NCBI GenBank assembly: GCA_035291665.1
Contig: DATDRP010000001.1
Span: 223,127-287,126, forward strand
From: Patescibacteria group bacterium
GTDB taxonomy: Bacteria > Patescibacteriota > Microgenomatia > UBA8517
Length of the DNA stretch: 64,000 nt
Direction of reading: 5' to 3'
Of this stretch, positions 37,077 to 63,288 are shown piece after piece. The notes beneath the pieces were generated by a model that saw only the letters and a list, made by a program, of their open reading frames with translations, did not search any database and was not told the origin of the DNA. Every line of letters begins with the position of its first letter. Positions within the stretch are counted from its first letter, which is position 1. Made by a program: the position numbers and the translations under genes.

Positions 37077-37082
37077 TTTTAC

Positions 37083-37820: not shown

Positions 37821-37958
37821 AAAAATGTAAGATATCCTGATTTTATCACCACCTTGCTTAAAACCACGTATTCATGCCGTCGATGTATCAAGTTTTCGCG
37901 ATTAACGAAGTTAATCACTGGTGTCAAACTTCCACAATCTTTAGACTGTGGAAGTTTA

Positions 37959-40226: not shown

Positions 40227-40307
40227 ATCTGTTTAAAATCGCTCATATCGCTTCATCTTTGCAAATAATATTTTGGATATCTATAATACTTCTAACCAAA
40301 AGTTGAA

Positions 40308-42194: not shown

Positions 42195-42287
42195 TAAATA
42201 TTATTAAAAGTAGTACAATTAATATACTATATTTATAACTTGTCGATAGACTTGTCAAGAAGTATAGAAAACCCAACTAAGTATATT

Positions 42288-45038: not shown

Positions 45039-46258
45039 TAAGATCTGAAAATCCTAAATATATTAAAAATGTTTAATAGAAGTGAAGCCACTGTTCCAAG
45101 CAAAACTGAATACACTGTTCCGTTTAATCCATAATTAATAGTTAGCGGATAAATTGTACTCGCCATTACAAATAATGCCGTAAAAGTGTAAAGAGTTACA
45201 TATTTTTGAAGTTTCAAAGAGTGGAATAAGGGATTACACGCGATAACAATTGATCTTAATACTCCAAATACAGCCAACGATTTCAGTATTGGAATTACAC
45301 CATACCACATGTCTCCAAGTAAAATCTTTACAATCATTTCAGGAAAAAAGTAGATTATTAATCCAACCGGAAATATTAACATTATTGTTACAATTAAAGT
45401 TTTTGAAAAGGCTTTCAATAACCTATTACGATCTTCAGATATTTTTACAAATATGGGAAAAGATACCGTATTCATTACATTTGTTACTTCAGTCAAAGGA
45501 AGTGTGGATATTTTATAAGCAACCTGATAAATTCCCAAACTGCTTTTTTCCATCAACTTTCCGACTAATGCATCATCACCATCCGTAAATAAAAAGTTAA
45601 ATATGGAACTGAGGGTAACCCATTTACCTCGATTAGTTATACTTTTGAGATTATACTTATTAAAACTTAATGTCGGTTTGAGCGACAGCATTAAAAAAGA
45701 CAATACAACTTCCGTAATGGCTCCGAATATTAGTCCGTAAACTAAACTGATTGGGTTTTTCAGTATGATCGTAAAAAACAGTGTGAATGTTAAGTCCACT
45801 ATTAAAACAATCGAACTGATAATAAATTCACCTTTAAACTTTAAATCTTTTATGAGAGTCGATCTTGCTGGATTAATAAATCCACGTATTAATGCAACCA
45901 GAGCAATTAGTCTTATTAAGATTACCGATTCTTCTGAGTTGAAAAAGGTTGAAACAAGCGAGGCGGATAAAAAAATTATAAAAAAGATTAAAACGCCTCG
46001 TAAAATTGAAATTAACCATGCTGTGTCAATATATTTTTCTAAATTTTCTTTCTCCTGAATAATAACTACTCCTATTCCTGTTTCCGTTATTGTCTCCAAA
46101 AAGGATAGCGTCAAAGTTGCAATTCCCAAAACACCAAACTGAAACGGAGTAAGTAATCTTGCTAAAATAATAATTCTCAAAAAAGCAAGTATTCTACTAA
46201 AAAGCCGGAAACTACCCATCCAACCAATTCCCGCTAACCCTGTTTTTGTGTATCCCAT
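45038..46258 (-). CDS. Wzx-type polysaccharide flippase (MOP superfamily)
   Basis: 12-14 transmembrane helices with the polysaccharide-biosynthesis-protein N/C pattern. 406 aa. Confidence 0.7.
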   Translation of the reverse strand: MGYTKTGLAGIGWMGSFRLFSRILAFLRIIILARLLTPFQFGVLGIATLTLSFLETITETGIGVVIIQEKENLEKYIDTAWLISILRGVLIFFIIFLSASLVSTFFNSEESVILIRLIALVALIRGFINPARSTLIKDLKFKGEFIISSIVLIVDLTFTLFFTIILKNPISLVYGLIFGAITEVVLSFLMLSLKPTLSFNKYNLKSITNRGKWVTLSSIFNFLFTDGDDALVGKLMEKSSLGIYQVAYKISTLPLTEVTNVMNTVSFPIFVKISEDRNRLLKAFSKTLIVTIMLIFPVGLIIYFFPEMIVKILLGDMWYGVIPILKSLAVFGVLRSIVIACNPLFHSLKLQKYVTLYTFTALFVMASTIYPLTINYGLNGTVYSVLLGTVASLLLNIFNIFRIFRS

Positions 46259-47682: not shown

Positions 47683-49887
47683 TTGAGTTACTTAGTTCTA
47701 CGTATGCGGAGTTTTGTCTTGAAGTTAATCAAATCTCTCCTCCTTTTATTTTCATTTTCAATTTTTACAACTCCAACAATTATTAAAGCCCAGGATTTTA
47801 TTTGGCTGCCAACAAGTTTGGTTGGTGCACCAACGCCAAGAAGAGCTTACGGAACAGTTTGGACAGGTTCAGAAATGTTGGTATGGGGAGGATTTCCGGA
47901 AGGATGGGTTTGCTCGTTTAAAACAGGAGGCAGGTACAACCCAATTACAGACACTTGGAGACCGATTTCAACAATTAATGCGCCATCTCCCCGTAGGCAT
48001 TTTCAGGCTGTTTGGTCCGGGACGGAAATGTTGGTATGGACCGGAGCAAATGAATCTTTTTGTCCTGATGGAGCACAATTCCCCGCAGACGGAGGACGCT
48101 ACAATCCTGTCACTGACACTTGGACACCTATTTCAACGGTAAATGCCCCAAGTCCTAGGTGGACAACCGGAGCTGTTTGGACCGGAACGGAAATGATAGT
48201 TTGGGGAGGAAGGGGTTCAACATTGTCAGAACCTTTGTTGAATAGAGGAGCCCGTTATAATCCTATCACTGATACCTGGACTACAATGTCAAACGTTGGA
48301 GCCCCCTCTCCCAGGTCTACGGAATACCAAATGTTCTGGACTGGTAGTGAACTAATTGTATGGGGCGGCGGGCCAAGTTCCTCTCCAGAACCAGACGGAG
48401 CCATTTATAATCCTGCAACTGACTCTTGGAGACCAATGAATTCAGGTGATCCCAATGCGGGCTTTACAAATTATTCAGGCGCTTGGACAGGTTCGGAATT
48501 GGTAACATGGAGCGGATGGAACAAATACAATGTATTGGTACAAACGGGTCAAATTTATAACCCCGTAACAGATACATGGCGGCCAATGACCACTCTTAAT
48601 TCCCCAGCTGCCAGAGGGTTAATACCCACATGGACAGGAACTGAGTTATTTATTTGGGGCGGCGTTGTCGGGGCGAATTGGATGGATAATGGTGGTTTAT
48701 ATAATCCTACAACCGATACCTGGAGACCCACATCGGATCTAAATAACCTCTCTGCCCGCGGAGATACATTTCCGATATGGACCGGAAATGAAGTTATCGT
48801 TTGGGGTGGAGCTCTCACAACATATAATCCTTGGCATGAATATATTTACAATACAGGCGCAAGATTCAAGATCCACTATAACTCACCGCCAACTGTATCA
48901 TCGGGAGGTCCATATTCCGTTAACGAAGGAGACTCAGTTGATCTCACTGCAAATGGATCCGATCCGGATAACGATACATTATCTTACACTTGGGATCTCG
49001 ATAACAACGGCACCTTTGAAACCTCAGGACAAACTGTTTCATTCTCAGCTGTAAATTTGGATGGCCCCGGTATATCAAATGTCGCAGTCAAAGTTACCGA
49101 TGGTGGCGGTCTGACTGCTACAGATCAAACGAGTATCGATATTTTAAATGTTCAACCTACGGTTATCTCAATAAATGCACCACTAGACCCGGTCCTGATT
49201 AATACCGCTATTAACACTAGTGGAACGTTTACGGATCCATCATATTCTGATCTGCATACTGCCATATGGGATTGGGGAGATGGTTTTTCTTCTGAAGGAA
49301 ATGTTGATGAGTTGTATAATTCAGTTGCAGCTTCGCATACTTATCTAACTCCCGGAGTCTATGAAATCAAATTAACAGCAACCGACGACGATTCCGGATC
49401 GGGTAATTTAATTTATCAATATGTTGTAGTATACGATTCCAATGTAAACGGAGGTTTTGTAACTGGTGCAGGAACTATCATTTCCCCGCTCGGAGCTTAT
49501 ACTTCCGATTATTCAATGACCGGTATTGCGAGATTTGGATTTATATCAAAATACCAACCGGGCGCATCATCCCCGACCGGAACTACTCAGTTTCGATTCC
49601 AGACAGCGAAATTTGATTTTGCAAGTAAAGATTATCAATGGTTGGTTGTTGCAGGAGCTCAAGCAAAATTTAAGGGTACCGGAACAGTTAATGGTTCCGG
49701 CAATTATGGTTTTCAGATTTCAGCAACGGATGGTTTGATACAGGGTGGTGGCGATATCGATAAATTCAGAATAAAAATATGGGATCTGAACAACAATAAT
49801 TTTGTTGTATACGATAACCAATTAGGATCAAACGACAATACAAACCCTACAACTGAACTATTGGGTGGAAATATCGTAATTCACTAA
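47683..49887 (+). CDS. Secreted Kelch-type beta-propeller protein with PKD domains and the shared C-terminal module
   Basis: Signal peptide; the likely start is the internal Met at about 47704. Nine or more repeats of YNP.TDTW(R/T)P...AP.PR......WTG.E...WGG. PKD signature WDWGDG...HTY..GVYEIKLTATD. The C-terminal ~150 aa match 40308..42194. Confidence 0.7.
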   Translation: MSYLVLRMRSFVLKLIKSLLLLFSFSIFTTPTIIKAQDFIWLPTSLVGAPTPRRAYGTVWTGSEMLVWGGFPEGWVCSFKTGGRYNPITDTWRPISTINAPSPRRHFQAVWSGTEMLVWTGANESFCPDGAQFPADGGRYNPVTDTWTPISTVNAPSPRWTTGAVWTGTEMIVWGGRGSTLSEPLLNRGARYNPITDTWTTMSNVGAPSPRSTEYQMFWTGSELIVWGGGPSSSPEPDGAIYNPATDSWRPMNSGDPNAGFTNYSGAWTGSELVTWSGWNKYNVLVQTGQIYNPVTDTWRPMTTLNSPAARGLIPTWTGTELFIWGGVVGANWMDNGGLYNPTTDTWRPTSDLNNLSARGDTFPIWTGNEVIVWGGALTTYNPWHEYIYNTGARFKIHYNSPPTVSSGGPYSVNEGDSVDLTANGSDPDNDTLSYTWDLDNNGTFETSGQTVSFSAVNLDGPGISNVAVKVTDGGGLTATDQTSIDILNVQPTVISINAPLDPVLINTAINTSGTFTDPSYSDLHTAIWDWGDGFSSEGNVDELYNSVAASHTYLTPGVYEIKLTATDDDSGSGNLIYQYVVVYDSNVNGGFVTGAGTIISPLGAYTSDYSMTGIARFGFISKYQPGASSPTGTTQFRFQTAKFDFASKDYQWLVVAGAQAKFKGTGTVNGSGNYGFQISATDGLIQGGGDIDKFRIKIWDLNNNNFVVYDNQLGSNDNTNPTTELLGGNIVIH

Positions 49888-49914: not shown

Positions 49915-50871
49915 TTAAACACTTATTATTCCGGAGAAGAAGCCGGCCATAACTGCGATATCCGAAGCAAATTGAAGTCCGATTCCGCAAAGCCCTGCTT
50001 TTGCGTCATGCGTTTCAAAATAAACCTTTCTGAACGCCCAGAAGCAGTAAAAAACAAATAAAAGAACAAATGGAAATTCCAAAACCTGCCAGATAATTGT
50101 TGCAAGAAGCAAATACAAACCAACTATATAACGAAGAAACACCAATGAGACTTTTATATTGTGGGTAGAAAGTTTTTTTACAGGATGCCACCAAATCCCC
50201 GACATGGCATCTCCTTTTGCATATAAATAGATTTTCTTGATGGCTTCAGAAAATGAAGTCGGAAGTTTCCAGTAAACTATTGCGTTTTTTACACGTACAA
50301 TTTTTGCCCCCGTTTTTATTATCTTGTAATTAAAAAGGGTATCCTCTGCCGTATCTTTTATGTCTTCCGGAAATCCGCCGACTTTCTGCCAAAGAGTTTT
50401 TCTGAAAGCTAAAGATCGGGCTGAAGCAACGAAAGAAGAACTGAATTTTGAAGGCGGAATTCCCAAGAATACAGATAGGGCTTTCCGGAAAGAGCTTTTT
50501 CCGCCTATCATTTCGTAAAATCCAGCCACCAAATCCACGCTTGCATCATCGAATGGTTTGGTGATCCTTTTATACCAGTTTTTATCGGCTATGCAGCCAG
50601 CATCGGTCGTAACGATGACATCTCCACCCGATGCGCGAATACCAATATTTCTTGCCTGCGAGCGGGAAGTGTTGAACTCAAAGAGTTTTATGTTTTTGCT
50701 GATCGATTGATACCTTTTTATAATATCAACCGTTTTGTCATCCGATCCCCCATCAACAAATATCATCTCGTAAGGTTTTTCCGTTTGCGTCAGAAGTGAT
50801 TCCAATAGAGCTGCTACAGAAGGTTCTTCGTTTAATACCGTGATCACCAATGAAGCTCTCATTAATGGCAA
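49915..50871 (-). CDS. Glycosyltransferase family 2, membrane-anchored at the C-terminus
   Basis: SLVITVLNEE...FVDGGSDDKT...TDAGC. 318 aa. Confidence 0.8.
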   Translation of the reverse strand: MPLMRASLVITVLNEEPSVAALLESLLTQTEKPYEMIFVDGGSDDKTVDIIKRYQSISKNIKLFEFNTSRSQARNIGIRASGGDVIVTTDAGCIADKNWYKRITKPFDDASVDLVAGFYEMIGGKSSFRKALSVFLGIPPSKFSSSFVASARSLAFRKTLWQKVGGFPEDIKDTAEDTLFNYKIIKTGAKIVRVKNAIVYWKLPTSFSEAIKKIYLYAKGDAMSGIWWHPVKKLSTHNIKVSLVFLRYIVGLYLLLATIIWQVLEFPFVLLFVFYCFWAFRKVYFETHDAKAGLCGIGLQFASDIAVMAGFFSGIISV

Positions 50872-50913: not shown

Positions 50914-53568
50914 TTATTTACTAATCTCTTCCGAATAGGATTTTATAAGTTCAATCAGTCTTGCGTCGCCAAGATCAATTGGTGATATACCAAAATTGTC
51001 ATCCGACGAAAGCGACCAGTTCCACAGCAAGATCCCATCGACTTCTTTTGCTTTTGCCTGTTTCAAAAGTGATTCATACAGTGTGTATCGATCAATTCCC
51101 CCATTATCTTCAGGCTTTTTGGAAAAACCGACTTCTTCGATAAGAAGCGGTATTGATGCTGAATCAGAAAAATTATCCCACCTGGCGACCACCTCATGAT
51201 CAATCAAGGAACGCTCGGATTTTACATTATCAAGATAATAATGCGCTGTCATTACTGAAATTTCTGCTAAATTATCCAGATCATCAATCATCGGACCCGT
51301 TGCATATGGCATAAGTTCATTATCCGTCAGAAAGCCTTCTGACCCGGTAAGAATCAAATGCGACGGGTCGATCGATCTCACAAATTTCGACATCTCATCA
51401 ATCCAGCCGACAACTTTATCGGAAGCGGCTACGCTCGAGCTTCTGGGTTCGTTCATAAGCTCCCATGCAAAGACTACCGGGTCGTCCTTGTAGGCAACGG
51501 CGCTTAACGAATTCGATCTTGTGAGTATCTTAAAAACAAAATTTTTATAGATATTTTTTGATTTTTGAGAATCAAAAAACTTATCTTTATCAATAGCTTC
51601 AACTGATTTGATGCCATCCCATTCCAAATATTTATCAACTCCCCCATAAGCCTCCCAATAATTGGCAAAAACGGGAATAACTTTCATATCCAAACGGTCG
51701 GCAACTGCGAAAATATAGTCAATTGCAGCAAGCCTGTCCTCATTATAAACACCCGGTTCCGGTTGGATAGCGCCTTCAAAACCCTCTCCGAAGATCCAAA
51801 AACGAACAACTTTTATACCGTTGTCCTTCGCAGAGGATAAAGTTGCAGATATATCAGCCGGGGATTTGTATATAAGGTCATATGAATTTACGCCTATGAA
51901 TTTAAATTTTTTATCGTTCAGCCAAAGTTCGCCATTCTTCGCATAGATTGTGTCCCTGGGGTGTTCTTTTCTTTTGTAAATTATTAGGTCGTCAAATTCT
52001 TTGACCTCATCAAAAGTTCGCAAAAACTTTGAGTTGCCGTCTTTGACCAACTTAATATACATCGGATTGTACTCGTTGCCTTTTGGCAGTATGAGCCACG
52101 TTGCATAAATACTCGGATCGATAATTGACGTTTCCCAGTACCTGCCTGTTCCTTCATGGATATATCTTTTCAGGGGGAAACCCATATCAAAGGCTAAGGA
52201 ACTGTTAACCATTGATAACATAATCAGCTCATCATTATTATTCATATTCACTTTTGCCCAATCGGACACAACCCGGGTATTCGAAGCGCTCGAACCGATT
52301 AATCCGTCTTTCAGAGTAATTACGTAATTTTCTTTAATTAACATAATCGGCTGAATGATGATAAGAAGTACCGTGAAATATTTCATAAATTTGCTTTTCG
52401 AAATAAGATATGATATATAAACCGAAATTGCCGGTAACATCATCAAACCGTAGCGGACGTTGAAAATACCCGCGGTAGTCCCCAAGTACGGATCCAGAAC
52501 TAATTCTGGAACATTTATCGTTGAATAACCCTGGTACAAAGAAACAATATTAAAAATCATCGGTGTCATTAAAACTAAAAGCGATAAATTATTTACAAAA
52601 TCTTTCTTTCGTAAATAAATATAAAACCCAAATATCGTAAATAACGTGAAGAAAAAACCGAAATTGTCAACCAATGACCATCCATAAGTTAAAACAGCCA
52701 TAACCAAATCTTTTTTGGCATATAAACCGCCTGCTTTCTCAATTAATTCCTGTTGAGCATGCGCAGAGTATTGACCCAACGCAAAATAAAAAGGGTCTTT
52801 AAAAATAAAAGCATTCCAGACTATCCAAAGGGCAATCCCCAATCCGGAAAGAGTCATAAATAGGGAAAGTTTTCCAATCGTATTAGAAACAAAATTTTTT
52901 AATTCAATAGTTTTAACATTCCCCAAGCGTCTTGACAGGTAGGTTTTGACTTCAATCAGAAATAATATTAATCCCGTAAAAGCAAATTGGAACCAGCCGT
53001 CATATCTTGTTAAAATCGCGAAAAATAAATATAAAGACATTAACAAGATATCGTTTAAATGTTTTTCTTTTTCCCACTTGAGTAAGTGATATGCCGATGC
53101 CAAGGAAAAAAACATTAGGGGAACCTCTGTCATCGGTGTTGTCTGCATATATAGTACATTTAAGTTTGTGGCAAATATCAGAAATCCTAAGAAAGCAATA
53201 ATTTTATTTTTGAAAATATAATTAATCAAACCATAAACATATAAAGAAGCTAAGATATATGCGATCATTGAAAAGACGGCACCGGCTAGCCCTGTTTGCC
53301 AAAGCCAATCATTCCATACCAGCGTCATAGTTAAAACATGCGTCAGAGGAAGCCAAACCGAACCGAGTTGCGCCAAACCGGGTTTTAAATTATCTGTAAC
53401 CAAGCGGGCAATATTCATATGCGCTCTTGCATCGCTATAGGCAAGGATTATGTTGTACTTGAATGAAATAAAAAGAGAAATCAAGCTCAACACGATTGAG
53501 ATAGAAAAAATCAGCTTCCAAGTGGGTTTAAATTTAAATATTTTGAAATCGATTGTTTTACTTTTCAT
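50914..53568 (-). CDS. Fusion: N-terminal polytopic GT-C/ArnT-PMT-like membrane domain plus C-terminal GH5 glycoside hydrolase
   Basis: N-terminal ~480 aa has 10+ transmembrane helices, with the first loop AYSDARAHMNIAR resembling the ArnT/PMT DE-loop. C-terminal GH5: VRFWIFGEG, acid/base ELMNEPR, nucleophile region LLIEEVGFS. 884 aa. Confidence 0.65.
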   Translation of the reverse strand: MKSKTIDFKIFKFKPTWKLIFSISIVLSLISLFISFKYNIILAYSDARAHMNIARLVTDNLKPGLAQLGSVWLPLTHVLTMTLVWNDWLWQTGLAGAVFSMIAYILASLYVYGLINYIFKNKIIAFLGFLIFATNLNVLYMQTTPMTEVPLMFFSLASAYHLLKWEKEKHLNDILLMSLYLFFAILTRYDGWFQFAFTGLILFLIEVKTYLSRRLGNVKTIELKNFVSNTIGKLSLFMTLSGLGIALWIVWNAFIFKDPFYFALGQYSAHAQQELIEKAGGLYAKKDLVMAVLTYGWSLVDNFGFFFTLFTIFGFYIYLRKKDFVNNLSLLVLMTPMIFNIVSLYQGYSTINVPELVLDPYLGTTAGIFNVRYGLMMLPAISVYISYLISKSKFMKYFTVLLIIIQPIMLIKENYVITLKDGLIGSSASNTRVVSDWAKVNMNNNDELIMLSMVNSSLAFDMGFPLKRYIHEGTGRYWETSIIDPSIYATWLILPKGNEYNPMYIKLVKDGNSKFLRTFDEVKEFDDLIIYKRKEHPRDTIYAKNGELWLNDKKFKFIGVNSYDLIYKSPADISATLSSAKDNGIKVVRFWIFGEGFEGAIQPEPGVYNEDRLAAIDYIFAVADRLDMKVIPVFANYWEAYGGVDKYLEWDGIKSVEAIDKDKFFDSQKSKNIYKNFVFKILTRSNSLSAVAYKDDPVVFAWELMNEPRSSSVAASDKVVGWIDEMSKFVRSIDPSHLILTGSEGFLTDNELMPYATGPMIDDLDNLAEISVMTAHYYLDNVKSERSLIDHEVVARWDNFSDSASIPLLIEEVGFSKKPEDNGGIDRYTLYESLLKQAKAKEVDGILLWNWSLSSDDNFGISPIDLGDARLIELIKSYSEEISK

Positions 53569-55111
53569 AATTATTTTTTAAGTCTTTTGTTAATATTATT
53601 AACGTCGGTAGTGACAATACTAAAACAATTAAAGCAACGAGTGCTATATAAAAGGTTCTTGCATCAGTATATGATTTCAAATAATTCTGAAATACAAACG
53701 ATTTTGATTTTCCTTCAAAGATTAATAGAATGTTCCTATCAAAAGAATACAACTCAGTTCTACCCGTCACCAATTGAAGACCGATTGCTTCATATTTAGG
53801 AGGATTTTTACTTGATGATATGGCTCCGGCAGTATTAACTGCTACCGAATAAATAAGAGCTAAATAAAATACTGCAAACAAGAATTTGTTTTTATTTTCA
53901 GATAAAAATGTTGAAAGAAGAATTGACAGCATCGCATAGGAAGGTACCAAGTAGCGGGACCCGAAAGACCATCCGCCTATTCCGAAAGATGAATATAGTG
54001 AAATATTGGTGATTGTAACTGACAATAACAAATAAGTAAAAGCTTTATTTTTCTTTCTCAAATTATTGATGCCTAAAAGTCCGAAAATAAGTACCGGAGT
54101 GAAAAAAAGTAATCCCCTGTCAACACTTAAAAGGTGCTCATATGCCCCCTGCGGTATATAGCTTAAATTAAATAATCCGCTGATTGATTTTCCGTCTGAA
54201 CTTTCCGATTCTTCTTCGCTTAACTCCTCAAACTTTTTTAATTGCGTGACTGATCCTGATAATTTGAACGGATTGCCATAGGAGTATTTATTAAATAACA
54301 GTAACGCCGATAAAGGTATAAGGATCGCAATTATTGGCAGTATCTGTTTTAAAGATAGAGTAAATCTAATTCTGTCTTCAGTTGCGGCGACATTGAATAA
54401 CCGGACTACTCCCAAAATTCCAACCGGCAATAACATAAAGAAATTGGGGAAATCAATAATAATTGATAACGAGCAAATGAAAAAAACAAAGATTATTCCT
54501 AAGAATCTTTTTGAAGTTAACAGAATATAACATGCCAAAAGCAATAAAAATGTTGACACATGATGCTGGAATAACGACACCGCATATGTAAAGGCTGGTG
54601 TTGCAAAAATAAAAATACCTGAACTAATCAATGAAACCGCCTTATTTGATGTCAACCTGAGGCAGATTTTATAAATTACAATTGTATTAAGAAATGCAAA
54701 TAAAGTAATAACCAAATAACCCCCAAGTTGTGTTGCATTAAATAACTTACCCAAATAAAATCCGGGAATTAATAAATATGAGATACCGGGAACAAACAAT
54801 GATACAAATTTTCCATTCACATAACCTAAATCCGGTAAAGAAAATTTCGCCAGCTCGTTATCCAGGAAAATTGATTTATTCTCTAAAATCGAATACGTCA
54901 GGGCAAAACGCGCCCGTTCAGGCGAAAGTTCAAAAGGACCGCTATCGGACCATTCTTTCAAATTTAATTCAGTTTCATTCGGGACTCCCGGTAGTCCGCG
55001 AACACTAAGCAAAAGAATTAATAAAATAAAAAAGAAAAAAACAGCAGTTATCAATCGTTCAATTAGTTTCATATTTTCATTTAGTTGTTGCGACAATTTC
55101 CCATATTCCAC
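53558..55111 (-). CDS. GT-C-like polytopic membrane glycosyltransferase (GT39/ArnT-like)
   Basis: 517 aa with about 12 transmembrane helices and the typical large first periplasmic loop. Confidence 0.5.
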   Translation of the reverse strand: MEYGKLSQQLNENMKLIERLITAVFFFFILLILLLSVRGLPGVPNETELNLKEWSDSGPFELSPERARFALTYSILENKSIFLDNELAKFSLPDLGYVNGKFVSLFVPGISYLLIPGFYLGKLFNATQLGGYLVITLFAFLNTIVIYKICLRLTSNKAVSLISSGIFIFATPAFTYAVSLFQHHVSTFLLLLACYILLTSKRFLGIIFVFFICSLSIIIDFPNFFMLLPVGILGVVRLFNVAATEDRIRFTLSLKQILPIIAILIPLSALLLFNKYSYGNPFKLSGSVTQLKKFEELSEEESESSDGKSISGLFNLSYIPQGAYEHLLSVDRGLLFFTPVLIFGLLGINNLRKKNKAFTYLLLSVTITNISLYSSFGIGGWSFGSRYLVPSYAMLSILLSTFLSENKNKFLFAVFYLALIYSVAVNTAGAISSSKNPPKYEAIGLQLVTGRTELYSFDRNILLIFEGKSKSFVFQNYLKSYTDARTFYIALVALIVLVLSLPTLIILTKDLKNNYEK

Positions 55112-55973
55112 GATTAATTTTTGATCGTTTTTTTGTCAGATCGGAATATTTATTAACAAGAAAAATATATACCGCCAATAGAGGGTGTTTTAAAAATTCT
55201 TCAATTCCATACCGCAGATACATCGATTTCGGTATTGAAAGTTCCCGGTCAACCAGATTTTTAGGGAAGATATCATATAGCTGTTCTTTGCTTAACTTGA
55301 ATCTGCGTGCCTGCTTGATATGGTCCTTTAATGAAGATGGCAGATTGTAATAAACAACCGCCTCCGGCACAAATCGATATACAAAACTTTCTTGAATGCA
55401 TTTCAGGTAAATATATCTGTCGTTACATACTACATTTCCGGGAATCGATGCTATGTTTTTGATGAATTCCCGTCTGAATGCAAGCATTGGTCCGGTTGCA
55501 GAAAAGATGTTGTTTCCACCCCGGAGAGTTCTTTTTATTTTTCGATAGATATTTACCGATAACAGATTCGCTCTCGCAATAAGCGATGTGCTTTCTACTG
55601 GAACAATATCACCCCCGCACATTGAAATACGTTCATCTGAACGCATTACCCTTACAACGCTTTCGATTGTGTGTTCAGAAAACACTACATCAGCATCCGT
55701 TTGTATCAAAATATCACTATCAAACTTTTTATATAACTCCCGCAGCCTCGTCATCTGACCAAGGTTGTCTTTGTTGTCAACAATTTCTATCTTCGGATTT
55801 TTAAGATTTTGGACAATTTCAACAGTTTTGTCGGTGGACCCATCAGAAATAATTAATACCTTATTGAGCTTGAAGTTTCGGCCTTTCTGCCTCACAACAG
55901 AGTTGATAAACTTGAGAATATTTCTTTGCTCATTAAAGGCGCTCAAACCCACTGTTACGGATAGCGTTTTCAT
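55077..55973 (-). CDS. Glycosyltransferase family 2
   Basis: LSVTVGLSAFNEQ...IISDGSTDKT...QTDADV. 298 aa. Confidence 0.8.
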   Translation of the reverse strand: MKTLSVTVGLSAFNEQRNILKFINSVVRQKGRNFKLNKVLIISDGSTDKTVEIVQNLKNPKIEIVDNKDNLGQMTRLRELYKKFDSDILIQTDADVVFSEHTIESVVRVMRSDERISMCGGDIVPVESTSLIARANLLSVNIYRKIKRTLRGGNNIFSATGPMLAFRREFIKNIASIPGNVVCNDRYIYLKCIQESFVYRFVPEAVVYYNLPSSLKDHIKQARRFKLSKEQLYDIFPKNLVDRELSIPKSMYLRYGIEEFLKHPLLAVYIFLVNKYSDLTKKRSKINRGIWEIVATTK

Positions 55974-55975
55974 AT

Positions 55976-56890
55976 TCAGATTTTCTTGGAACTTAAAGAA
56001 AAATCCCAGATTGAATATCTCCTATTGGAGTATTTTTTGTTAAAAAAATTATATATATAAATTAATATATAACCTAAAAATAAAGGATGTGTAATAATAT
56101 TTTTCAGGAATGCATAAACCCATATTAATACCGGTACCTTATATTCTTTTTCAATGAGATTTTTATTGTATATTTTTAGAAGTTTTTTCTTTCCCTCATA
56201 ATATCTATCACTTTGTTTTTTATAATCCTGGAAAACGGATGGAGATCTGAATATTATTTTCGGTTTTTTAATAAACTTAAAAAGAAAGCCCTTTTTCAAA
56301 CATTTCAAATATGAATATGCATCTTCAGGGTATTTATCATCCCAAACAAAATTTTTATAAAATCTTCTAAAAAATAGTCTTCCCCTACCGTGACACATAT
56401 AAATATTGTTGCCTTGTTTCCAGGTTTTATATGCAAATTTCTTAAATTCCCGTCCATCGACTATTACCCTTTCAAAAAATGATTTCGGGGTGGCGCTGAC
56501 TGTTTCAACACTGACTATCCCGACATTATCTTTATCGAATAATTTAATCTCACTTATTAAATTTTCTAAAAAATATTTATCAGGAAGTAATACATCCGCG
56601 TTCAATAAGAGTAAAAGATCGGAATTCGATTTCTTTATTATTTCGTTTTGAACGTTTGGCTGACCACTCCTTTTATTCATAATCATGTATTCAAACTTAG
56701 TGTGTTTAATGGTTTTTAATATGGTGTTGGTATTGTCAGTCGAAGAATCTGAAACAACTAAAATTTTTTGGAGTTCAAAGTTATACTCCTTTTGTAAAAA
56801 CAGGCTTTTTATAATCTTTTCAATATTACCCTCCTCATTATAAGCGGGAATTCCTATTGTTAATGTTGGTTTGTTATTTCTATTTACCAT
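55976..56890 (-). CDS. Glycosyltransferase family 2
   Basis: LTIGIPAYNEEGNI...VVSDSSTDNT...LNADVLL. 304 aa. Confidence 0.75.
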   Translation of the reverse strand: MVNRNNKPTLTIGIPAYNEEGNIEKIIKSLFLQKEYNFELQKILVVSDSSTDNTNTILKTIKHTKFEYMIMNKRSGQPNVQNEIIKKSNSDLLLLLNADVLLPDKYFLENLISEIKLFDKDNVGIVSVETVSATPKSFFERVIVDGREFKKFAYKTWKQGNNIYMCHGRGRLFFRRFYKNFVWDDKYPEDAYSYLKCLKKGFLFKFIKKPKIIFRSPSVFQDYKKQSDRYYEGKKKLLKIYNKNLIEKEYKVPVLIWVYAFLKNIITHPLFLGYILIYIYNFFNKKYSNRRYSIWDFSLSSKKI

Positions 56891-58496
56891 TGGTCGAAAT
56901 TATTTTTTTTATATACAAAAATGTAGGTGAAATTTTTAATTTGAATAAATCTTCACCGTCATTGTGTTTTACATTAATTCTTTGAATTTTAAATCGGTTG
57001 TCTTTTAATTTTGAATAATAATTATTTTCTGTTGTAAACGCTGCTTTAAATTTATTTACCTTTAATAATTTAACCATATTTTCATTGTGTTGTCCGTGAG
57101 GATAAGCAAAATATTTAGTTTTTATTCCAATATATTTTGACAGTAACATTTTTGACAAAATAATATCAACCGAAGCTTCTTCCGGGCTTATTTGGGTCAT
57201 ATCCCGGTGAGTATGGTTATGGGATCCGATCGTCCACCCTTCGGCTTTAAGGCGTTTCAAATCGAGTACATTCAAATATACTTTACCTTGTTTCTTATTC
57301 ATCAAATTATTGCTATTTATAAACACAGTTGGTTTGATAGCCAATTTATTTAGTTCTTCAACAATAGACAAAACACTCTTCAATCCGTCATCAAATGTAA
57401 GCATATAATTTCCTTTGAACTTATTTGCGAAGCTGAAAAATCTGTCAGGAAGAACGAATCGATATATATTGTTAATATAATTAATCTGACGAATAAAAGT
57501 GTTCTTGTCTACCGTATAGTCATCGTCATGATTTCCTATTTCATGATAATTAATTACTAATAAATCAATCTTTCTGACAAGAAATTTATCGCTCAAGGCA
57601 AATATTAATACGCTGAATTTAATACTAAACTTAACAAGTGTATCGATTGTTTTTTGGTTCTTTTGATATATCATTCCAACAATAAAGGCAATCAATTCAA
57701 TAAGTTTGACAAAACAATAACCAAAAAATACAAACGGTTCTTTGTAAATGTTCTCAACGTTTTTGAAAATATTCTTGATACTTCTGTCATACAAATTTAT
57801 TCTTTTTATCCCTTCAGTTCCTTTTGAGGCCACCCTGATGGAATAAAATCCCATCCAAAATTTTTTAATCATACTTTGGATCAATGTAAAATGGTCAAAA
57901 GATATATGAATTGGATTTTTTAAACGGCTAATTTTTAAGTTTTTCTTGTTTAAATTAATCCAAAATCCCCATTCATCAGATTGGCCGTAAAATTTGTTAA
58001 AAGGAAGCTGATGCTCAGAAAAAAGAGATCTTTTGAAAATCCTGGGAGTTTCTGAGTTCTGGTCTTTTACATAGAGACCCTTTTCGAACGTATAAATTCT
58101 GGACAAAACATTTTTATTGATAATCCCTTTTTCGGTTATATAATAAGCATCGGCAATCATTCGTAAACTCAAAATTTCATCTACCAGCTCTTTTGTCAAA
58201 ATCATATCGTGATCAATATATAAAATATATTTTCCCGATGAGTTCAGGAAACCTTTATTTCTTGCATCATTTTTTTCACCCTGGAAAGTTATAAATTTCA
58301 AATTATGAAGTTTGTAGCTTTTAATCAGATCGGCAACTTCTCCTCCGGCGACAATCACCAATTCCACCAAATTGCTTTTAATTTCTGAAAGAGCTTTTAA
58401 GCACTCTTTCAACTGCATCGGATTACCTTTTATACAAAGATTTATAGATATTTTACGATTTTGAAGAGTTTTCATATTATTCTTTCTCCGTTGCAA
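56880..58496 (-). CDS. Fusion: GT2-like N-terminal domain plus C-terminal polysaccharide deacetylase (CE4/NodB)
   Basis: N-terminus VIVAGGE...YIDHDM (GT2-like). Membrane segment. C-terminal NodB motifs LTFDDGLKS...HNHTHRD. 538 aa. Confidence 0.7.
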   Translation of the reverse strand: MQRRKNNMKTLQNRKISINLCIKGNPMQLKECLKALSEIKSNLVELVIVAGGEVADLIKSYKLHNLKFITFQGEKNDARNKGFLNSSGKYILYIDHDMILTKELVDEILSLRMIADAYYITEKGIINKNVLSRIYTFEKGLYVKDQNSETPRIFKRSLFSEHQLPFNKFYGQSDEWGFWINLNKKNLKISRLKNPIHISFDHFTLIQSMIKKFWMGFYSIRVASKGTEGIKRINLYDRSIKNIFKNVENIYKEPFVFFGYCFVKLIELIAFIVGMIYQKNQKTIDTLVKFSIKFSVLIFALSDKFLVRKIDLLVINYHEIGNHDDDYTVDKNTFIRQINYINNIYRFVLPDRFFSFANKFKGNYMLTFDDGLKSVLSIVEELNKLAIKPTVFINSNNLMNKKQGKVYLNVLDLKRLKAEGWTIGSHNHTHRDMTQISPEEASVDIILSKMLLSKYIGIKTKYFAYPHGQHNENMVKLLKVNKFKAAFTTENNYYSKLKDNRFKIQRINVKHNDGEDLFKLKISPTFLYIKKIISTNGK

Positions 58497-61400
58497 ATGC
58501 AGGTGCAGCTTGGGTTATTTTATGTTCATGAATATTCATAAGAATATTCAAAAACCTTTCTGACTGTACTACCCAAGAATAATTTCTGGACCATTCATAG
58601 GCGTTTTTTGAAAGGATCTTCCTGTATCCGTCCATTGTTGTCAGTCCGACAATCGCTTTAGCTAAGATATCAGAATTTTCCAAAGGCACCAAAAGGCCCG
58701 TTAAGCCGTCGGCAACGGAATCCCGAAGCCCGTTTGTGTCTGAAGCGATCACCGGTGTTCCCGACGCATTTGCTTCAACAACAGTAATTCCCCACCCTTC
58801 AAAAGATGAAGGCTGGATCATTGCCCAGGAACGGGCAAGGATTTCTCTTTTTTCCTTTTCACTCACAAAACCTTTAAATTCAATATTTTCCTGCAAACCA
58901 AGCTTCTCGGTTAACAATTTGAGCTTTTCTTCCGATTCTCCCCGTCCGGCAACTATAAATTTCGCATTGGGTATATCTTTTACAACATCTCTGAAAGCTT
59001 TAATTGCAATGTCAACATTTTTATAATCCATCACACGACCCAAATATGAATATGTTGGTACTTCATATTTTTTCATTCTTGAAAAATCTCTCAAATTAAT
59101 TCCCGGATTAATGACATTGATGTTTTCACCGAGAGTCATATTTTCCTTGAGAATATCGTTTTTACTGGACTCCGATACGGTAACAACTTCAACATTTCTA
59201 TACACATTGGGCATCAGTTTCCCTTCAAGAAAACTTGCAAAATACGAAAACGGAAAAATGAGGTGTTTCCTGAAAATTGCCTGATGAACATGATGAATCA
59301 GAAGAACTTTTGGTAAATTTGAAAACAATGGTGAATAAAAAGGAATCCCATTTTCACAATCGACGACAAAGTCAAATTTTCCTCTCATTTTCAGAATATA
59401 ATATATCGGTACCCAAGCATATAAAGTAAAAAACCCGCCTCTTCGTATAATATTAACTCCTTTCAATTTTTCGTCGAATTTGTTTTTACCGTCATTGCCG
59501 CAGAATATTGTTACTCCGTAGCCCTTTTTGACCCACTTTTTTGCAAGCTCGTTAACATATACTTCAGCACCACCTGCCCATCTGTGCTTTATGTCTCTCC
59601 AGTTAAGGATAAGAATATTCAGTCTATTATCTGAATGTGAAACATTTAAAGGCTTTAGCAAATACAATAAAGACACCAGGTTAATCCTCAATGACGTCAT
59701 TTTTACAGTCAGAATATGAAGTGCAAATGTTGAGACAAAATACGATAGCGATGCTGCATAGATAGAACTGACAATTTGTCCAATAGTATCGTGGTTTTGA
59801 ATGATGTATAAAACCTCAAATGCGCTGATCAAAAAACCCAAAAGAGAAAAAGAGTACTGCTTTTTGACTTGGTGATAGGAAACAATTGTCGTTGCCAGAG
59901 TAAACGCAGCAATCGCAAGCGCATAATGCGGTAGATATTCAATAATCTGATAAGCTTTATTTCCAAATAGAAATGGCGCAGAAAGGGTTGAAAATACACC
60001 CAATCCGATATACGAAATTACGATAACTCCGAAGGTTAACCCAAAGATAGCATAAAATGTTTTTAAGCTATCTTTACCTTCACCAATTTTCCTGGCAACC
60101 ACAGGTGTAACAAAACTCGGGAAGAGACTTCCCAAAAAGAAGATCATTTTTCCGCAAAGGGAAAGTATTGCATATTTCCCGGCACTTTCCGGATCCAGAA
60201 GAAAAGTTGCCAATACAACATCAGCGCTCAAAAAGAATGCGACTGTAAACCTATTCAAAAGAGTTGTCAAATAAAATTTGAAGGGAAAATCCGCTTTTAC
60301 TTTAACCCCCCTGCGAATTTTGTTTTCGGGTATTTTCGAAACAATAAACCAGCCAATCAGGAGCGACATAAATAATGAAAACGGCTGATTGTAATAAATG
60401 AGATTAACATTACCAAGAGTTACGGACACAAACGCACCCAGCAGTTTGATAATCGGTACAATAATAGTAATCGCAGCCAGCATGTTGAACTTATGGTTAC
60501 CGCTTAAAAATCCCTGATCAACTGCGGTAATTGCAGAAATAATCAAAGTCGGTGCAACAACGAACAAGGCTAAATCGTTATCATACAAACCCTTTTCTGA
60601 TAAGAATAGCGAACCTATTGCCCAAATAATTCCTACCGGAAGTAATATCAAAAAAGCATATTTTCTGTATTTTGACCAATAATCTTTCCTAATGCCTCCG
60701 CGCCTACCCAATAAATATGCAGCTTTGTAAGAAACTGTGATCAACAGCGTTGCCGTTACGACACTTATAATAAGGTATGCATTAGTCATCAGGCTGGCTG
60801 ATCCGAATTCGGAATAAGTCAAAACCCTACCCAAATAGGCGTTATAAATGTAATTAAGGATGTTGGCGATAATATTCGAAACAATTAAAAGTCCTCCCCC
60901 GAATAGCAAAGTATTAACTTTTCCGAAGATATTGATCGGACTCAAGCGGTTTTTTACTGCAGAATAGCTTGTAAACTCGTGAGAGTCGGATTTCGAATCA
61001 TAGAGAATTTTTTCGGTTGGTTTTTTATTAAAAGTTAATACATTAACGTTGGGAATTAAATTTTTAAGATATGCAAAAGAAATATTAATTTTCGGAAATT
61101 CAAACGTTGGAATAATTGTAATTTCAGGAATAAATGCAACTTTAACTTTGTTCTCGGCTTGTAAATGCAAACCATGTTTGGTTTTCTCCCAATAGTATGG
61201 TTTTGCGATTAATTGATAAAAAGCAATAAAGGCAGCCACGAATGAAAGCATCCAATAAAAAGGAATAAAAAATACATACTGTATTAAGTTCCAATAATTG
61301 CGTTTAGCAAGTCCAATCATATTGGAATAAAAATATGTAAAATTTCCGAAAACCATTGTAAAGACTGCGATATAGAAAATATAAGGCGGATACAAAGCTT

Positions 61401-63288
61401 GAATTTGCGGACCCACAAATCGGTAGAGTGTAAAATAAGCAAGCGTCATCAGCCATAAAAACGGATTAATCAGAATAAATACCATTCTCATTGCTATGAT
61501 CAACTGAAAAAGAACAGCATGCAGTTTAAATTCCCTGAAAAACTCTACAGGTTTACGCATATGAACAAAATATGTTTGCATGTATCCTTTGATCCAACGG
61601 GAGCGTTGTCTTATCCAGCTTTTTATTTTACTATTGGCTTCTTCGAAAGTTACGGAATCAATAATCGCACTTTTATACCCTTTTTTAAATAGCCTTGTTC
61701 CCAAATCACAATCTTCCGTAACATTAAATGCATCCCAGCCGTTTAAAGATTTCAAAACCTCTGTTTTAAAATGATTGCTGGTTCCCCCAAGAGGAATGAA
61801 GGTATCAAAAGACTGAAGACCGGGAAGAGCAATATCAAACCAGAATGAATACTCGGAAGTGAACAATTTGGTCAACAAATTCTGATCCTGATTATAGTAA
61901 TTAAGTTTTGATTGAAGACAAATTGTATTCCTGTCTACCTGCCTGAAAGCAAGAAATGCTTTTTTGAGCTGCAATGGATCGGGTTTATCCTCTGCATCAT
62001 AAATAACAAGATAATCACCTGTTGCTTGATTCAGACCGAAATTACAGGCTTTGGGTTTAGTCTTTGGAAGTGAGGCCGGTACAATTAATATTTTATAATA
62101 AGGAGGAAGCTTCAGATCATACGCTTTATTAATAGTAACCGTGTCATCTTCCTCCAAAAGTAGCAACACTTCAAGTTTGTCTTTCGGCCAATCTATTGAT
62201 TCAATTCCTGATACAAATTGTTTTATAACTTCAGCCTCTTTGTATAAAGGACATAAAATAGTGTAGACGGGTAATTTACTGTCATCTATGTCTGCAATCT
62301 GTGATGGCGAAATTGAGATTTCTTTTGATTTCTTCAAAGATCGGAAAATAGTCACGCCTGTAAACAAAAAATCCGATAAATAGATATACGACAATATTCC
62401 TATCAACAACGTAAGTGTTACTTTAGTAAAAAATATAAGTCCGATGACAAACGTAAATCCAAAAAAAGTCAAAACCAGTTTTTGAATCGGTGTAAAGGTT
62501 TTAACTGCCGATAGTTCAGGATCAAGAGCGGAGTGTGTAATATATTTCTTTCCATTGAAAAAATATCCTTGACCGTCGATACTATCAAACTTATATGCTT
62601 TATTCCCCCTGAGCTTAAGTTTTATCGATTCCCCAGCAATTTGTTTGCCCGCTTTTATAAAATCTATTTTTGAAATACCGGCTTTACGCGGTGAAAAACT
62701 AATTTTTATTGTATCAATTTTGTATCCACTTGCCAGGCACGCTTTAAGGATCGGCATGTCGATTGTCCATTCTTTCACATCGTTTTCACTCAGAAGATCG
62801 ATAACTTCGTGCCTGAAAGCCTTAAGTCCCGATTGAGTATCGCAATCAAATCCGTGAAGTAACTTCTCAAAAATGAGCTTATTCATTGCACTACCCAAGC
62901 GTCTTAGGATTGAGGTCTTTTTACCTGATCTATTCGCGACAACTACTCCAGTATTCTCATCCTCGAGCTTCTGAAGCATTTCAGGAATGGCTTCAGGAGG
63001 ATATTGAAGGTCTCCATCGATCATAACCAGCATCTTTCTGTCTGAAACACTTGAGGCTTCCAAAATGCTGTAAGCTTTTCCCTGACGACCTTTTTTCGTT
63101 AAAAGAATAATTGGGTAAAACTGCTTCAATGCCGAAACCATTGATGCCGTGTTATCCTCGGAAAGGTCGTCCACAAATATAATCCTATATTCATATTTAC
63201 TAGCCAAACTAACATGAATGCGTTTGACCAGTTCAAATATATTTTGTGCTTCATTTTTTACCGGAACAATTACATCAACCTTATTCAT
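58477..63288 (-). CDS. Giant multidomain synthase: GT2, processive GT2 (D, DxD, TED, QxxRW), about 14 transmembrane helices, GT4
   Basis: 1603 aa. Domain 1: VIVPVKNEAQNI...FVDDLSEDNT...IDGDLQYP. Domain 2: ILCPLYKEAEV, YDAEDKPDP, VTEDCDLG, QRSRWIKG, which is the cellulose/chitin/PNAG-synthase motif set. Long polytopic region. C-terminus EGWGITVVEANASGTPVIASDTNG (GT4 E-x7-E). Confidence 0.75.
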   Translation of the reverse strand: MNKVDVIVPVKNEAQNIFELVKRIHVSLASKYEYRIIFVDDLSEDNTASMVSALKQFYPIILLTKKGRQGKAYSILEASSVSDRKMLVMIDGDLQYPPEAIPEMLQKLEDENTGVVVANRSGKKTSILRRLGSAMNKLIFEKLLHGFDCDTQSGLKAFRHEVIDLLSENDVKEWTIDMPILKACLASGYKIDTIKISFSPRKAGISKIDFIKAGKQIAGESIKLKLRGNKAYKFDSIDGQGYFFNGKKYITHSALDPELSAVKTFTPIQKLVLTFFGFTFVIGLIFFTKVTLTLLIGILSYIYLSDFLFTGVTIFRSLKKSKEISISPSQIADIDDSKLPVYTILCPLYKEAEVIKQFVSGIESIDWPKDKLEVLLLLEEDDTVTINKAYDLKLPPYYKILIVPASLPKTKPKACNFGLNQATGDYLVIYDAEDKPDPLQLKKAFLAFRQVDRNTICLQSKLNYYNQDQNLLTKLFTSEYSFWFDIALPGLQSFDTFIPLGGTSNHFKTEVLKSLNGWDAFNVTEDCDLGTRLFKKGYKSAIIDSVTFEEANSKIKSWIRQRSRWIKGYMQTYFVHMRKPVEFFREFKLHAVLFQLIIAMRMVFILINPFLWLMTLAYFTLYRFVGPQIQALYPPYIFYIAVFTMVFGNFTYFYSNMIGLAKRNYWNLIQYVFFIPFYWMLSFVAAFIAFYQLIAKPYYWEKTKHGLHLQAENKVKVAFIPEITIIPTFEFPKINISFAYLKNLIPNVNVLTFNKKPTEKILYDSKSDSHEFTSYSAVKNRLSPINIFGKVNTLLFGGGLLIVSNIIANILNYIYNAYLGRVLTYSEFGSASLMTNAYLIISVVTATLLITVSYKAAYLLGRRGGIRKDYWSKYRKYAFLILLPVGIIWAIGSLFLSEKGLYDNDLALFVVAPTLIISAITAVDQGFLSGNHKFNMLAAITIIVPIIKLLGAFVSVTLGNVNLIYYNQPFSLFMSLLIGWFIVSKIPENKIRRGVKVKADFPFKFYLTTLLNRFTVAFFLSADVVLATFLLDPESAGKYAILSLCGKMIFFLGSLFPSFVTPVVARKIGEGKDSLKTFYAIFGLTFGVIVISYIGLGVFSTLSAPFLFGNKAYQIIEYLPHYALAIAAFTLATTIVSYHQVKKQYSFSLLGFLISAFEVLYIIQNHDTIGQIVSSIYAASLSYFVSTFALHILTVKMTSLRINLVSLLYLLKPLNVSHSDNRLNILILNWRDIKHRWAGGAEVYVNELAKKWVKKGYGVTIFCGNDGKNKFDEKLKGVNIIRRGGFFTLYAWVPIYYILKMRGKFDFVVDCENGIPFYSPLFSNLPKVLLIHHVHQAIFRKHLIFPFSYFASFLEGKLMPNVYRNVEVVTVSESSKNDILKENMTLGENINVINPGINLRDFSRMKKYEVPTYSYLGRVMDYKNVDIAIKAFRDVVKDIPNAKFIVAGRGESEEKLKLLTEKLGLQENIEFKGFVSEKEKREILARSWAMIQPSSFEGWGITVVEANASGTPVIASDTNGLRDSVADGLTGLLVPLENSDILAKAIVGLTTMDGYRKILSKNAYEWSRNYSWVVQSERFLNILMNIHEHKITQAAPAFATEKE

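Follow-up and report, generated by a model that had tools for sequence, protein, structure and literature searches.

A single gene of a Patescibacteria group bacterium encodes a protein in which a polytopic membrane domain of the glycosyltransferase C (GT-C) fold class is followed by a glycoside hydrolase (GH) domain of family GH5. The gene lies in a 64,000-nucleotide stretch of contig DATDRP010000001.1 (assembly GCA_035291665.1); this whole stretch is called the window here. We propose that the fusion is an envelope enzyme with two functions, whose active sites are both predicted to lie outside the cytoplasmic membrane, and that it forms the final part of a conserved module for glycan assembly. 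The GT-C domain would transfer a sugar from a lipid carrier to a beta-glycan. This glycan would be the product of GT2b, a synthase of glycosyltransferase family 2 (GT2) encoded in the same cluster, and the GH5 domain would grip or cut its backbone. We give this reading slightly better than even chances, and the specific division of labour between GT-C and GH5 lower ones. The domain folds, the conservation of catalytic residues, the synteny and the natural fusions are directly supported; the "coupled trimming and transfer" suggested in a first-pass annotation of the sequence is what we infer from them.

To our knowledge, GT-C enzymes and polymer-trimming hydrolases are both well known, normally as separate proteins, and the envelope glycans of the Patescibacteria (Candidate Phyla Radiation, CPR) are essentially uncharacterised. 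The literature that we searched contained no description of a GT-C/GH fusion architecture. The retention of both catalytic centres in one chain across three phyla implies that bond making and bond breaking are coupled at the membrane surface and act on the same polymer.

Architecture of the fusion gene

The open reading frame is uninterrupted, starts with ATG and has exactly the coordinates given in the first-pass annotation. Its length of 884 amino acids was confirmed, and homologues share the same continuous architecture. The gene and its parts are:

50914..53568, minus strand: fusion gene, 884 amino acids, GT-C membrane domain plus mid domain plus GH5, ATG to stop with the stop codon included (open reading frame list and translation)
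52333..53568, minus strand: GT-C membrane domain, residues 1-412, 11 transmembrane (TM) helices (Foldseek, PMT_2 at 25.4 bits, helices of the model, positive-inside charge count)
51949..52332, minus strand: mid domain, residues 413-540, alpha/beta, predicted extracytoplasmic (found in 80 of the 84 related loci described below; secondary structure of the model; conservation)
50917..51948, minus strand: GH5 domain, residues 541-884, (beta/alpha)8, subfamily-7-like, beta-mannanase type (phmmer against the PDB, Foldseek, Pfam PF00150)
53431..53433, minus strand: codon of D46, candidate catalytic or base Asp in the motif AY[SN]DARAH (invariance in the family alignment and in distant homologues)
51448..51450, minus strand: codon of E707, GH5 acid/base in the NEP motif (invariant in 32 plus 11 sequences; codon checked)
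51133..51135, minus strand: codon of E812, GH5 nucleophile in the EEVGF motif (invariant in 32 plus 11 sequences; codon checked)

The membrane domain has a GT-C fold

The first-pass annotation described the N-terminal part as about 480 residues with ten or more TM helices. It is indeed polytopic, but it is better described as 11 TM helices (residues 17-412 of the model) followed by an alpha/beta domain of 128 residues (413-540). An AlphaFold2 model of residues 1-540, built on 44 family members, had a predicted local distance difference test score (pLDDT) of 90 and a predicted template modelling score (pTM) of 0.91. In a Foldseek comparison of the N-terminal domain with the PDB, all matches at E<1e-3 were GT-C enzymes, namely DPY19, STT3 of the oligosaccharyltransferase (OST), ArnT, ALG12, AglB, PglB and ALG9, with E-values from 1.7e-6 (DPY19) to 1e-3 and TM-scores of 0.43-0.54 (ArnT 0.53); AftB, Emb and Pmt followed at lower ranks. 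MFS, MATE and other transporters stayed below a Foldseek probability of 0.1. Judged by its model, the N-terminal domain belongs to the GT-C fold class, in line with the resemblance to ArnT and PMT noted on first reading, and no transporter family of the kind considered there as an alternative was significantly matched.

In the Pfam search the query stayed below the gathering thresholds of both PMT_2 (25.4 bits, cutoff 26.1) and PMT (20.2 bits, cutoff 22.7), and some homologues pass the PMT_2 cutoff (L010 with 27.5 bits, P0042 with 34.2 bits). Profile searches of the GT-C family against the PDB sequences matched no solved GT-C, ArnT or PMT, and because these searches found nothing the GT-C assignment rests on the fold. 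Since the PMT_2 threshold was missed and no solved GT-C was matched, we have not filed the domain in GT39 or GT83, and by sequence comparison we regard it as a GT-C family of its own that has no name yet.

The TM helices were taken from the AlphaFold model together with a charge count, because a Kyte-Doolittle hydropathy scan broke up some helices and overlooked others. Lysine and arginine account for 10 of the 33 residues in the inside loops and for 8 of the 137 residues in the outside loops, and a topology with the N-terminus inside and the C-terminus outside is indicated. The mid domain and the GH5 domain would therefore lie outside the membrane. Independent support for this topology comes from three natural fusions (P0052, P0071 and P0140) in which a GT2 domain of cytoplasmic type precedes the first TM helix. 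The extracytoplasmic position thus predicted for GH5 from helix count, charge distribution and N-terminal GT2 fusions agrees with the placement at the membrane surface in the first-pass annotation.

All invariant polar residues (Y44, D46, H50, Q67, E148, R188, Y189, D190, W192, Q272, Q273, N370, R372 and Y373) map to the predicted outer side, either in the loops there or where helices end on that side. The first of these loops is long (residues 38-93) and contains short helices, the invariant Y44, D46 and H50, and a QLGSVWLPL motif. D46 starts the first helix of this loop and is invariant in the 44-sequence alignment and in all distant homologues; its position, rather than a superposition, is what we take to be analogous to the catalytic Asp in the first external loop of ArnT, PglB and PMT. 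Across Patescibacteria, Dormibacterota and Actinomycetota the invariant set comprises D46, E148, R188-Y189-D190-W192, Q272-Q273 and N370-R372-Y373-G374. The mid domain (413-540), which also terminates the stand-alone members of the family, has an invariant D421 and an IHEGTG motif that is kept in Patescibacteria only.

The GH5 domain is of the mannanase type and keeps its catalytic residues

Residues 553-852 match PF00150 (GH5) in Pfam with E=1.1e-16, and homologues carry PF26410 (GH5_mannosidase). In phmmer searches against the PDB, beta-mannanases were matched with E-values from 1e-42 to 1e-15, whereas cellulases reached 0.05 or worse. The best matches were soybean GmMAN19-1 (9m20, 1.3e-42) and Bacillus BlMan5_7 (8gf3, 5.6e-42), and further ones were a Thermotoga petrophila enzyme (3pz9) and tomato LeMAN4a (1rh9). 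Over most of the GH5 region the full-length model has a pLDDT of about 90-97. Foldseek placed 8gf3 at E=3.9e-23 with a target-normalised TM-score of 0.86, and the top 21 matches were all GH5 beta-mannanases or beta-mannosidases. The fit to GH5 mannanases gave target-normalised TM-scores of 0.82-0.86; several of these nearest matches are GH5_7 enzymes, but at only 26-28% identity. By sequence comparison the domain is mannanase-type and not cellulase-type.

The motifs WELMNEPR and EEVGF, pointed out on first reading, were located as N706-E707-P708 and E811-E812 (IEEVGF). We compared the GH5 residues in 43 sequences from three phyla with overall identities of 27-49%. In 32 fusion proteins (31-48% identity) there is no variation at R589, N706, E707, H776, E812 and W849 and almost none at Y778. 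The same residues are kept in 11 distant homologues from the three phyla (27-41% identity), with Y778 replaced by F in four of them; position 778 is F in Actinomycetota and in one of the Dormibacterota (L016) and otherwise Y. Both catalytic Glu residues, whose conservation the first-pass annotation had considered decisive, are thus invariant throughout. By predicted fold and by all signature residues the domain is a member of GH5, and its sequence bears all hallmarks of an active retaining enzyme of the mannanase branch.

Distribution of the fusion

The same fusion occurs in other genomes, a possibility raised in the first-pass annotation, and was found in Patescibacteria, Dormibacterota and Actinomycetota. 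A word-indexed search returned about 48 full-length fusions at 90% clustering (32-49% identity, 850-900 amino acids), the named sources of which were Gottesmanbacteria or Roizmanbacteria, and also hundreds of proteins of about 540 amino acids that end after the mid domain. When 1.84 billion representatives were searched exhaustively with HMMER, 720 matches had an E-value of 1e-30 or better; the best 150 of these included about 13 full-length fusion representatives at 50% clustering as well as fragments spanning the junction. Relatives numbered 589 in a scan that covered one genome per species. Full-length GT-C+GH5 proteins are present in metagenome-assembled genomes (MAGs) of the Patescibacteria type, in two Dormibacterota (L010 and L016), in an Actinomycetota MAG (L018), in an Actinoplanes MAG (L028) and in the cultured isolate Symbioplanes lichenis TISTR 2343 (L042). 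Owing to its presence in this isolate and in the Actinoplanes MAG the fusion is genetically testable, which is rare for CPR biology.

In databases the homologues are annotated as "hypothetical protein", "cellulase family glycosylhydrolase" or "Glycosyl transferase family 2/Cellulase". Of the genes named "cellulase" or "GH8/GH5" that CPR metagenome surveys count as carbon degradation, many may encode biosynthetic accessory domains. Many MAGs assembled by third parties (those of L005, L012, L015, L017 and others) carry a cluster of the Patescibacteria type under the titles "uncultured Gammaproteobacteria" or "Pseudomonadales"; these titles look erroneous and are unfit for conclusions on taxonomic distribution.

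Natural fusions and a parallel GH8 architecture

Gene fusions connect the GT-C domain with the putative donor synthase, with GT2b and with its upstream neighbour polyA (see below). The GT2 domain in the three proteins P0052, P0071 and P0140, which are GT2+GT-C+GH5 fusions, is ArnC/AglJ/PpgS-like, and in Symbioplanes a GT2 domain is located just upstream of GT-C+GH5 in the same reading frame. P0192 joins GT2a, GT2b and GT-C, and polyA is fused with GT-C in P0075, P0102 and L035 (L035:1651-4863). Together with the GT2a of the cluster, the ArnC/AglJ/PpgS-like fusions suggest, indirectly, a donor linked to a lipid phosphate. Matching the GT2 of the triple fusions to one GT2 of the window by BLAST was tried and given up, with 21-31% identity to several of them; the NCBIfam class was used instead.

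Other C-terminal modules found on the GT-C domain are Glyco_hydro_cc (P0143), CarboxypepD_reg, DUF5719 and a LamG-like lectin. In P0042 a LamG-like domain, akin to the LamG of a PKD protein in the window, follows GH5.

A second, independent kind of chimera was observed in locus L001, in which an 881-residue protein (L001:13857-16502, minus strand) combines a PMT/PMT_2 membrane domain with a GH8 domain of the BcsZ type. It adjoins a GT21/GT2 synthase gene (L001:16495-17886, minus strand) and is located 1.2 kb from the homologue of the GH5 fusion. Its membrane domain is about 22% identical over 120 residues to the GT-C domain studied here. Among the matches listed, at least 120 full-length GT-C+GH8 relatives (42-54% identity) were found in Woese-, Roizman- and Pacebacteria and others. 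PMT-type GT-C+GH8 proteins, with more than 120 clusters in Patescibacteria, are much more abundant there than the GH5 fusion; none is encoded in the 64-kb window. Given this parallel fusion, the architecture is recurrent and not a one-off.

The gene cluster around the fusion

Cluster proteins of the window were compared with 84 related loci (L001-L084) by tblastn. The genes upstream of the fusion are:

53558..55111, minus strand: polyA, polytopic protein of 517 amino acids, remote GT-C paralogue (hhalign, synteny, natural fusions)
55077-55973, minus strand: GT2 (Pfam)
55976-56890, minus strand: GT2 (Pfam)
56880-58496, minus strand: GT2 plus CE4 polysaccharide deacetylase (Pfam)
58477..63288, minus strand: multi-domain glycosyltransferase of 1603 amino acids (Pfam, NCBIfam, motifs), consisting of the following four parts
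62569-63288, minus strand: GT2a, residues 1-240 (ArnC-like 1.3e-19, also AglJ and PgfS; NCBIfam)
61189-62301, minus strand: GT2b synthase, residues 330-700 (PgaC_IcaA 4.3e-32, BcsA 2e-10)
59599-61191, minus strand: polytopic Wzx-like region, residues 700-1230 (weak match to Polysacc_synt)
58480-59598, minus strand: GT4, residues 1230-1603 (Pfam/NCBIfam)

GT2b is the best-conserved element. Its identity is 49-65% across Patescibacteria, Dormibacterota and Actinomycetota, an unusually strong conservation for these phyla. Its motifs DAED431, TED524 and QRSRW561 make up the full set of a processive synthase (D, DxD, TED, QxxRW). It was found in 53 of the 84 loci, many of the others ending early at contig ends, and in the loci that lack polyA it directly precedes the GT-C gene. 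The synthase-dependent context postulated in the first-pass annotation is thus borne out by a PgaC/BcsA-like GT2 as the most conserved neighbour, and the module with this GT2b is a candidate core pathway for Patescibacteria envelope glycans. In GT2a, the match to ArnC, AglJ and PgfS spans residues 2-212, with a DGDLQ motif at residue 91. Since the scores are below the equivalog cutoffs, the class of polyprenyl-phosphate sugar synthases is assigned, but not the sugar. The GT2 gene downstream of the fusion (49915-50871) was considered as donor synthase and dropped in favour of GT2a, because it is conserved in only 9 of the 84 loci and is not specifically ArnC-like. Homologues of the three genes between polyA and the 1603-residue protein occur in 32-53 of the 84 loci, and CE4 deacetylases in 32 of the 84 clusters. 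General Pfam scans of the cluster genes showed no PilZ or porin-type domain; no search was aimed at cyclic di-GMP receptors or export parts.

polyA has no Pfam match, a sub-cutoff NCBIfam match to the putative glycosyltransferases LA_3751/LA_3752 (5.6e-16) and no match in a profile search of its family against the PDB sequences. In an hhalign comparison it was related to the GT-C family with a probability of 87.9% (E=3.2e-6, 304 columns). It lies directly upstream in 71 of the 84 loci and nearly always ends at the start of the GT-C gene; in the window its stop overlaps the start of the fusion gene by 11 nucleotides. This arrangement suggests that polyA and GT-C may form a heteromeric GT-C pair. 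The Dormibacterota and Actinomycetota versions of the cluster lack polyA.

GH5 and polyA tend to exclude one another, with GH5 found in 9 of the 13 loci without polyA and in 5 of the 71 with it, and L008 has both only via a second, separate GT-C copy. The lineage of the window is among the few that have both on one gene pair.

Proposed function and alternative explanations

In the mechanism that we favour, the cytoplasmic ArnC-like GT2a would load a sugar onto polyprenyl phosphate, and the lipid-linked sugar would be flipped, possibly by the Wzx-like region of the 1603-residue protein. The PgaC/BcsA-like GT2b would polymerise and extrude a beta-linked glycan. On the outer face GT-C, probably paired with polyA, would then move the lipid-carried sugar to the glycan or its anchor, with D46 and the other invariant outer-face residues carrying out the transfer chemistry. 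The rigidly attached GH5 domain would bind the beta-glycan backbone and then cleave or trim it, and it would fill the place that a non-catalytic carbohydrate-binding module holds in other GT-C enzymes. GT2 enzymes invert, and beta-linked products are therefore expected from both GT2a (the polyprenyl-phosphate sugar) and GT2b (the polymer). GT-C enzymes also invert, so that a beta-polyprenyl-phosphate hexose donor yields an alpha-linkage, and GH5 enzymes cut beta-linkages. It is thus most likely that the two domains have different bonds of a single polymer as their targets: GT-C may add an alpha-linked branch or primer, and GH5 probably grips or cuts the backbone made by the synthase rather than the bond made by its own GT-C.

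Several points weigh against this proposal. The full-length model has a pLDDT of 89.5 but a pTM of only 0.75. With PMT_2 below threshold and no solved GT-C matched by sequence, the use of a lipid-linked donor is read from the fold and the gene fusions. The hints to the polymer are discordant, the GH5 domain being mannanase-like and the neighbours being a PgaC-like synthase and CE4 deacetylases. The assignment of a flippase is weak, since residues 700-1230 of the 1603-residue protein match Polysacc_synt with only 20.2 bits (E=4.4e-4). About 68 of the 84 loci have a GT-C family member without GH5; transfer thus needs no GH5, which is therefore an accessory module and not integral to transfer. 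Finally, the whole family is known from genes, comparisons and models alone.

It might also be possible that the GH5 domain is mainly a transglycosylase. It would then cleave the growing beta-glycan and attach it to another chain, to a wall polymer or to an acceptor that GT-C has primed, and so anchor or cross-link the polymer rather than trim it. GH5 enzymes are retaining, transglycosylation is known from GH5_7 mannanases, both catalytic Glu are in place and the domain is predicted to be tethered at the membrane beside a transferase, in monoderm lineages that need a means to attach secreted polymers. However, no sequence feature separates hydrolases from transglycosylases, sortase or other anchoring genes are near only some homologues and no candidate acceptor was identified, so that we regard this explanation as unlikely, if worth keeping in view. 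Rather less probable is the assembly of a lipoglycan, in which GT2b would make a membrane glycolipid anchor, the two GT-C paralogues would extend it on the outer side from lipid-linked sugar donors, in the manner of lipomannan assembly, and GH5 would set the length or release the glycan. The matches of GT2b to GT21 (the ceramide/diacylglycerol glycosyltransferase type) would fit, as would the monoderm host phyla, Actinomycetota included, and two GT-C paralogues with a polyprenyl-phosphate sugar synthase recall Ppm1 with MptA and MptB. Elongation by GT-C from beta-polyprenyl-phosphate hexoses would, however, give alpha-linkages, which are not expected substrates of GH5, and GT2b has the full processive motif set.

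That GH5 serves as a mere carbohydrate-binding module which positions the acceptor, its catalysis being irrelevant, seems quite improbable to us. In other GT-C enzymes the C-terminal domain binds but has no catalytic role (PMC11127046), and most members of the family lack GH5, but every GH5 signature residue, including both catalytic Glu, is kept in 43 of 43 sequences, and such conservation across three phyla would be unexpected if the domain served for binding only. We find it very improbable that the protein is a nutrient-scavenging mannanase with a dead GT-C as anchor. A dependence on external or host-derived polymers is assumed for Patescibacteria, and GH5 is closest to degradative endo-mannanases; yet the invariant outer-face polar residues of the membrane domain persist across phyla, the synteny with biosynthetic glycosyltransferases is tight, natural fusions link the protein to GT2 and GT2b, and an anchor of 11 TM helices would be needless for such a role. 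A joining of two adjacent genes by a sequencing or assembly error has a probability close to nil, because independent homologues share the fusion: the architecture is continuous in dozens of independent assemblies (JGI, ENA, NCBI, Logan), including an isolate genome, and the junction is short and structured in the AlphaFold2 model.

Beyond the bifunctional envelope enzyme proposed for the window, GT-C-glycoside hydrolase chimeras with GH5, GH8 or Glyco_hydro_cc could form a general, unrecognised "build-and-cut" class of envelope enzymes. In such a class a retaining hydrolase would act as transglycosylase or length-setter on a synthase-made beta-glycan, and GT-C would supply a lipid-derived branch or primer. 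We put this forward as a speculation with rather low chances of being right. If true, it would represent a new route to assemble or anchor wall polymers in Patescibacteria, Dormibacterota and some Actinomycetota.

Comparison with known systems

In our reading, the fusion may combine the working principle of three-component GT-C systems with that of synthase-dependent polysaccharide systems, the usually separate hydrolase being fused to GT-C. Three-component systems include GtrA/GtrB/GtrC, ArnC/ArnT, CsbB/GtcA/YfhO and the GT136 enzyme ORF12 of Citrobacter youngae (PMC11127046). In the GT136-type system the acceptor glycan is bound by a periplasmic domain at the C-terminus of the GT-C, and C-terminal acceptor-binding modules have been described for ORF12/GT136, EmbC and AftD (PMC11127046). 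The cluster of the window shares with these systems a GT2 synthase of polyprenyl-phosphate sugars and a polytopic GT-C with an active site and a C-terminal accessory domain that are, in the window, predicted to lie outside the membrane. In contrast to them, the accessory domain is, judging from its sequence, a catalytically intact GH5 rather than a binding module, a second GT-C paralogue is present as partner, and the system is attached to a processive-type GT2 synthase; moreover, the flippase is only weakly identifiable and the GT-C matches no solved GT-C by sequence.

Coupling of a hydrolase to a membrane GT2 synthase is known from BcsZ (GH8), PslG, PelA, the C-terminal domain of PgaB and plant KORRIGAN, and here it is likewise genetic and presumably physical. 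These hydrolases are soluble, lipoproteins, single-pass or fused to a deacetylase, however, and none is joined to a polytopic GT-C. Compared with synthase-dependent exopolysaccharide systems, outer-membrane export parts are not expected in the host organisms, and the GH family differs, being a mannanase-type GH5. The domain resembles GH5_7 endo-beta-1,4-mannanases (8gf3, 3pz9, 1rh9, 9m20) in fold, NEP acid/base, nucleophile Glu and the R/H/Y/W signature. Whereas those enzymes are secreted and degradative, it is the C-terminal part of a transferase with 11 TM helices, encoded in a cluster of biosynthetic genes. Mannan is not the obvious product to expect from the synthase and deacetylases nearby.

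The paralogous GT-C pairs Pmt1-Pmt2 and EmbA-EmbB offer a parallel to polyA and the fusion, which are encoded together with overlapping ends and are fused in some genomes. In contrast to these pairs, polyA and GT-C are far more divergent, their relationship being detectable only at profile level, and their complex is putative. Cyclic beta-1,2-glucan synthase (Cgs) consists of a GT84 domain, a GH-like cyclisation domain and GH94. Like the fusion, it joins synthesis with glycoside-cleaving or transglycosylating domains in one membrane polypeptide, and it controls polymer length; unlike in the fusion, its domains are cytoplasmic, the glycosyltransferase is of the Leloir type and the sequence is unrelated. 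What is new here is the chimera of GT-C and GH5. Each kind of component is already known, and the system is not categorically new.

Other genes in the window

The glycan cluster reaches well past the fusion region, and further genes are found from 35186 to 46258:

35186-36352: Wzy_C/O-antigen-ligase-like protein
36327-37820: two GT2s
42288-43415: GT4
43400-45038: two methyltransferases
45038-46258: bona fide Wzx-type flippase

Between the GT2s and the GT4, a 755-residue protein (37959-40226, minus strand) has an N-terminal GT2 and a large polytopic C-terminal half, for which no relation to the studied GT-C family was detectable. Housekeeping genes fill the first 35 kb of the window, including those for DnaE, GatA, GatB and a phosphoenolpyruvate-utilising enzyme of the pyruvate dikinase/phosphoenolpyruvate synthase type, together with three tRNAs. 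Two large, apparently secreted proteins (40308-42194, minus strand, and 47683-49887, plus strand) have a common C-terminal module of 250 residues (41% identity, E=2e-42), which consists of a PKD domain and a second domain without assignment. One of the two combines a LamG/3-keto-disaccharide-hydrolase-like domain with PKD, the other a Kelch propeller with PKD.

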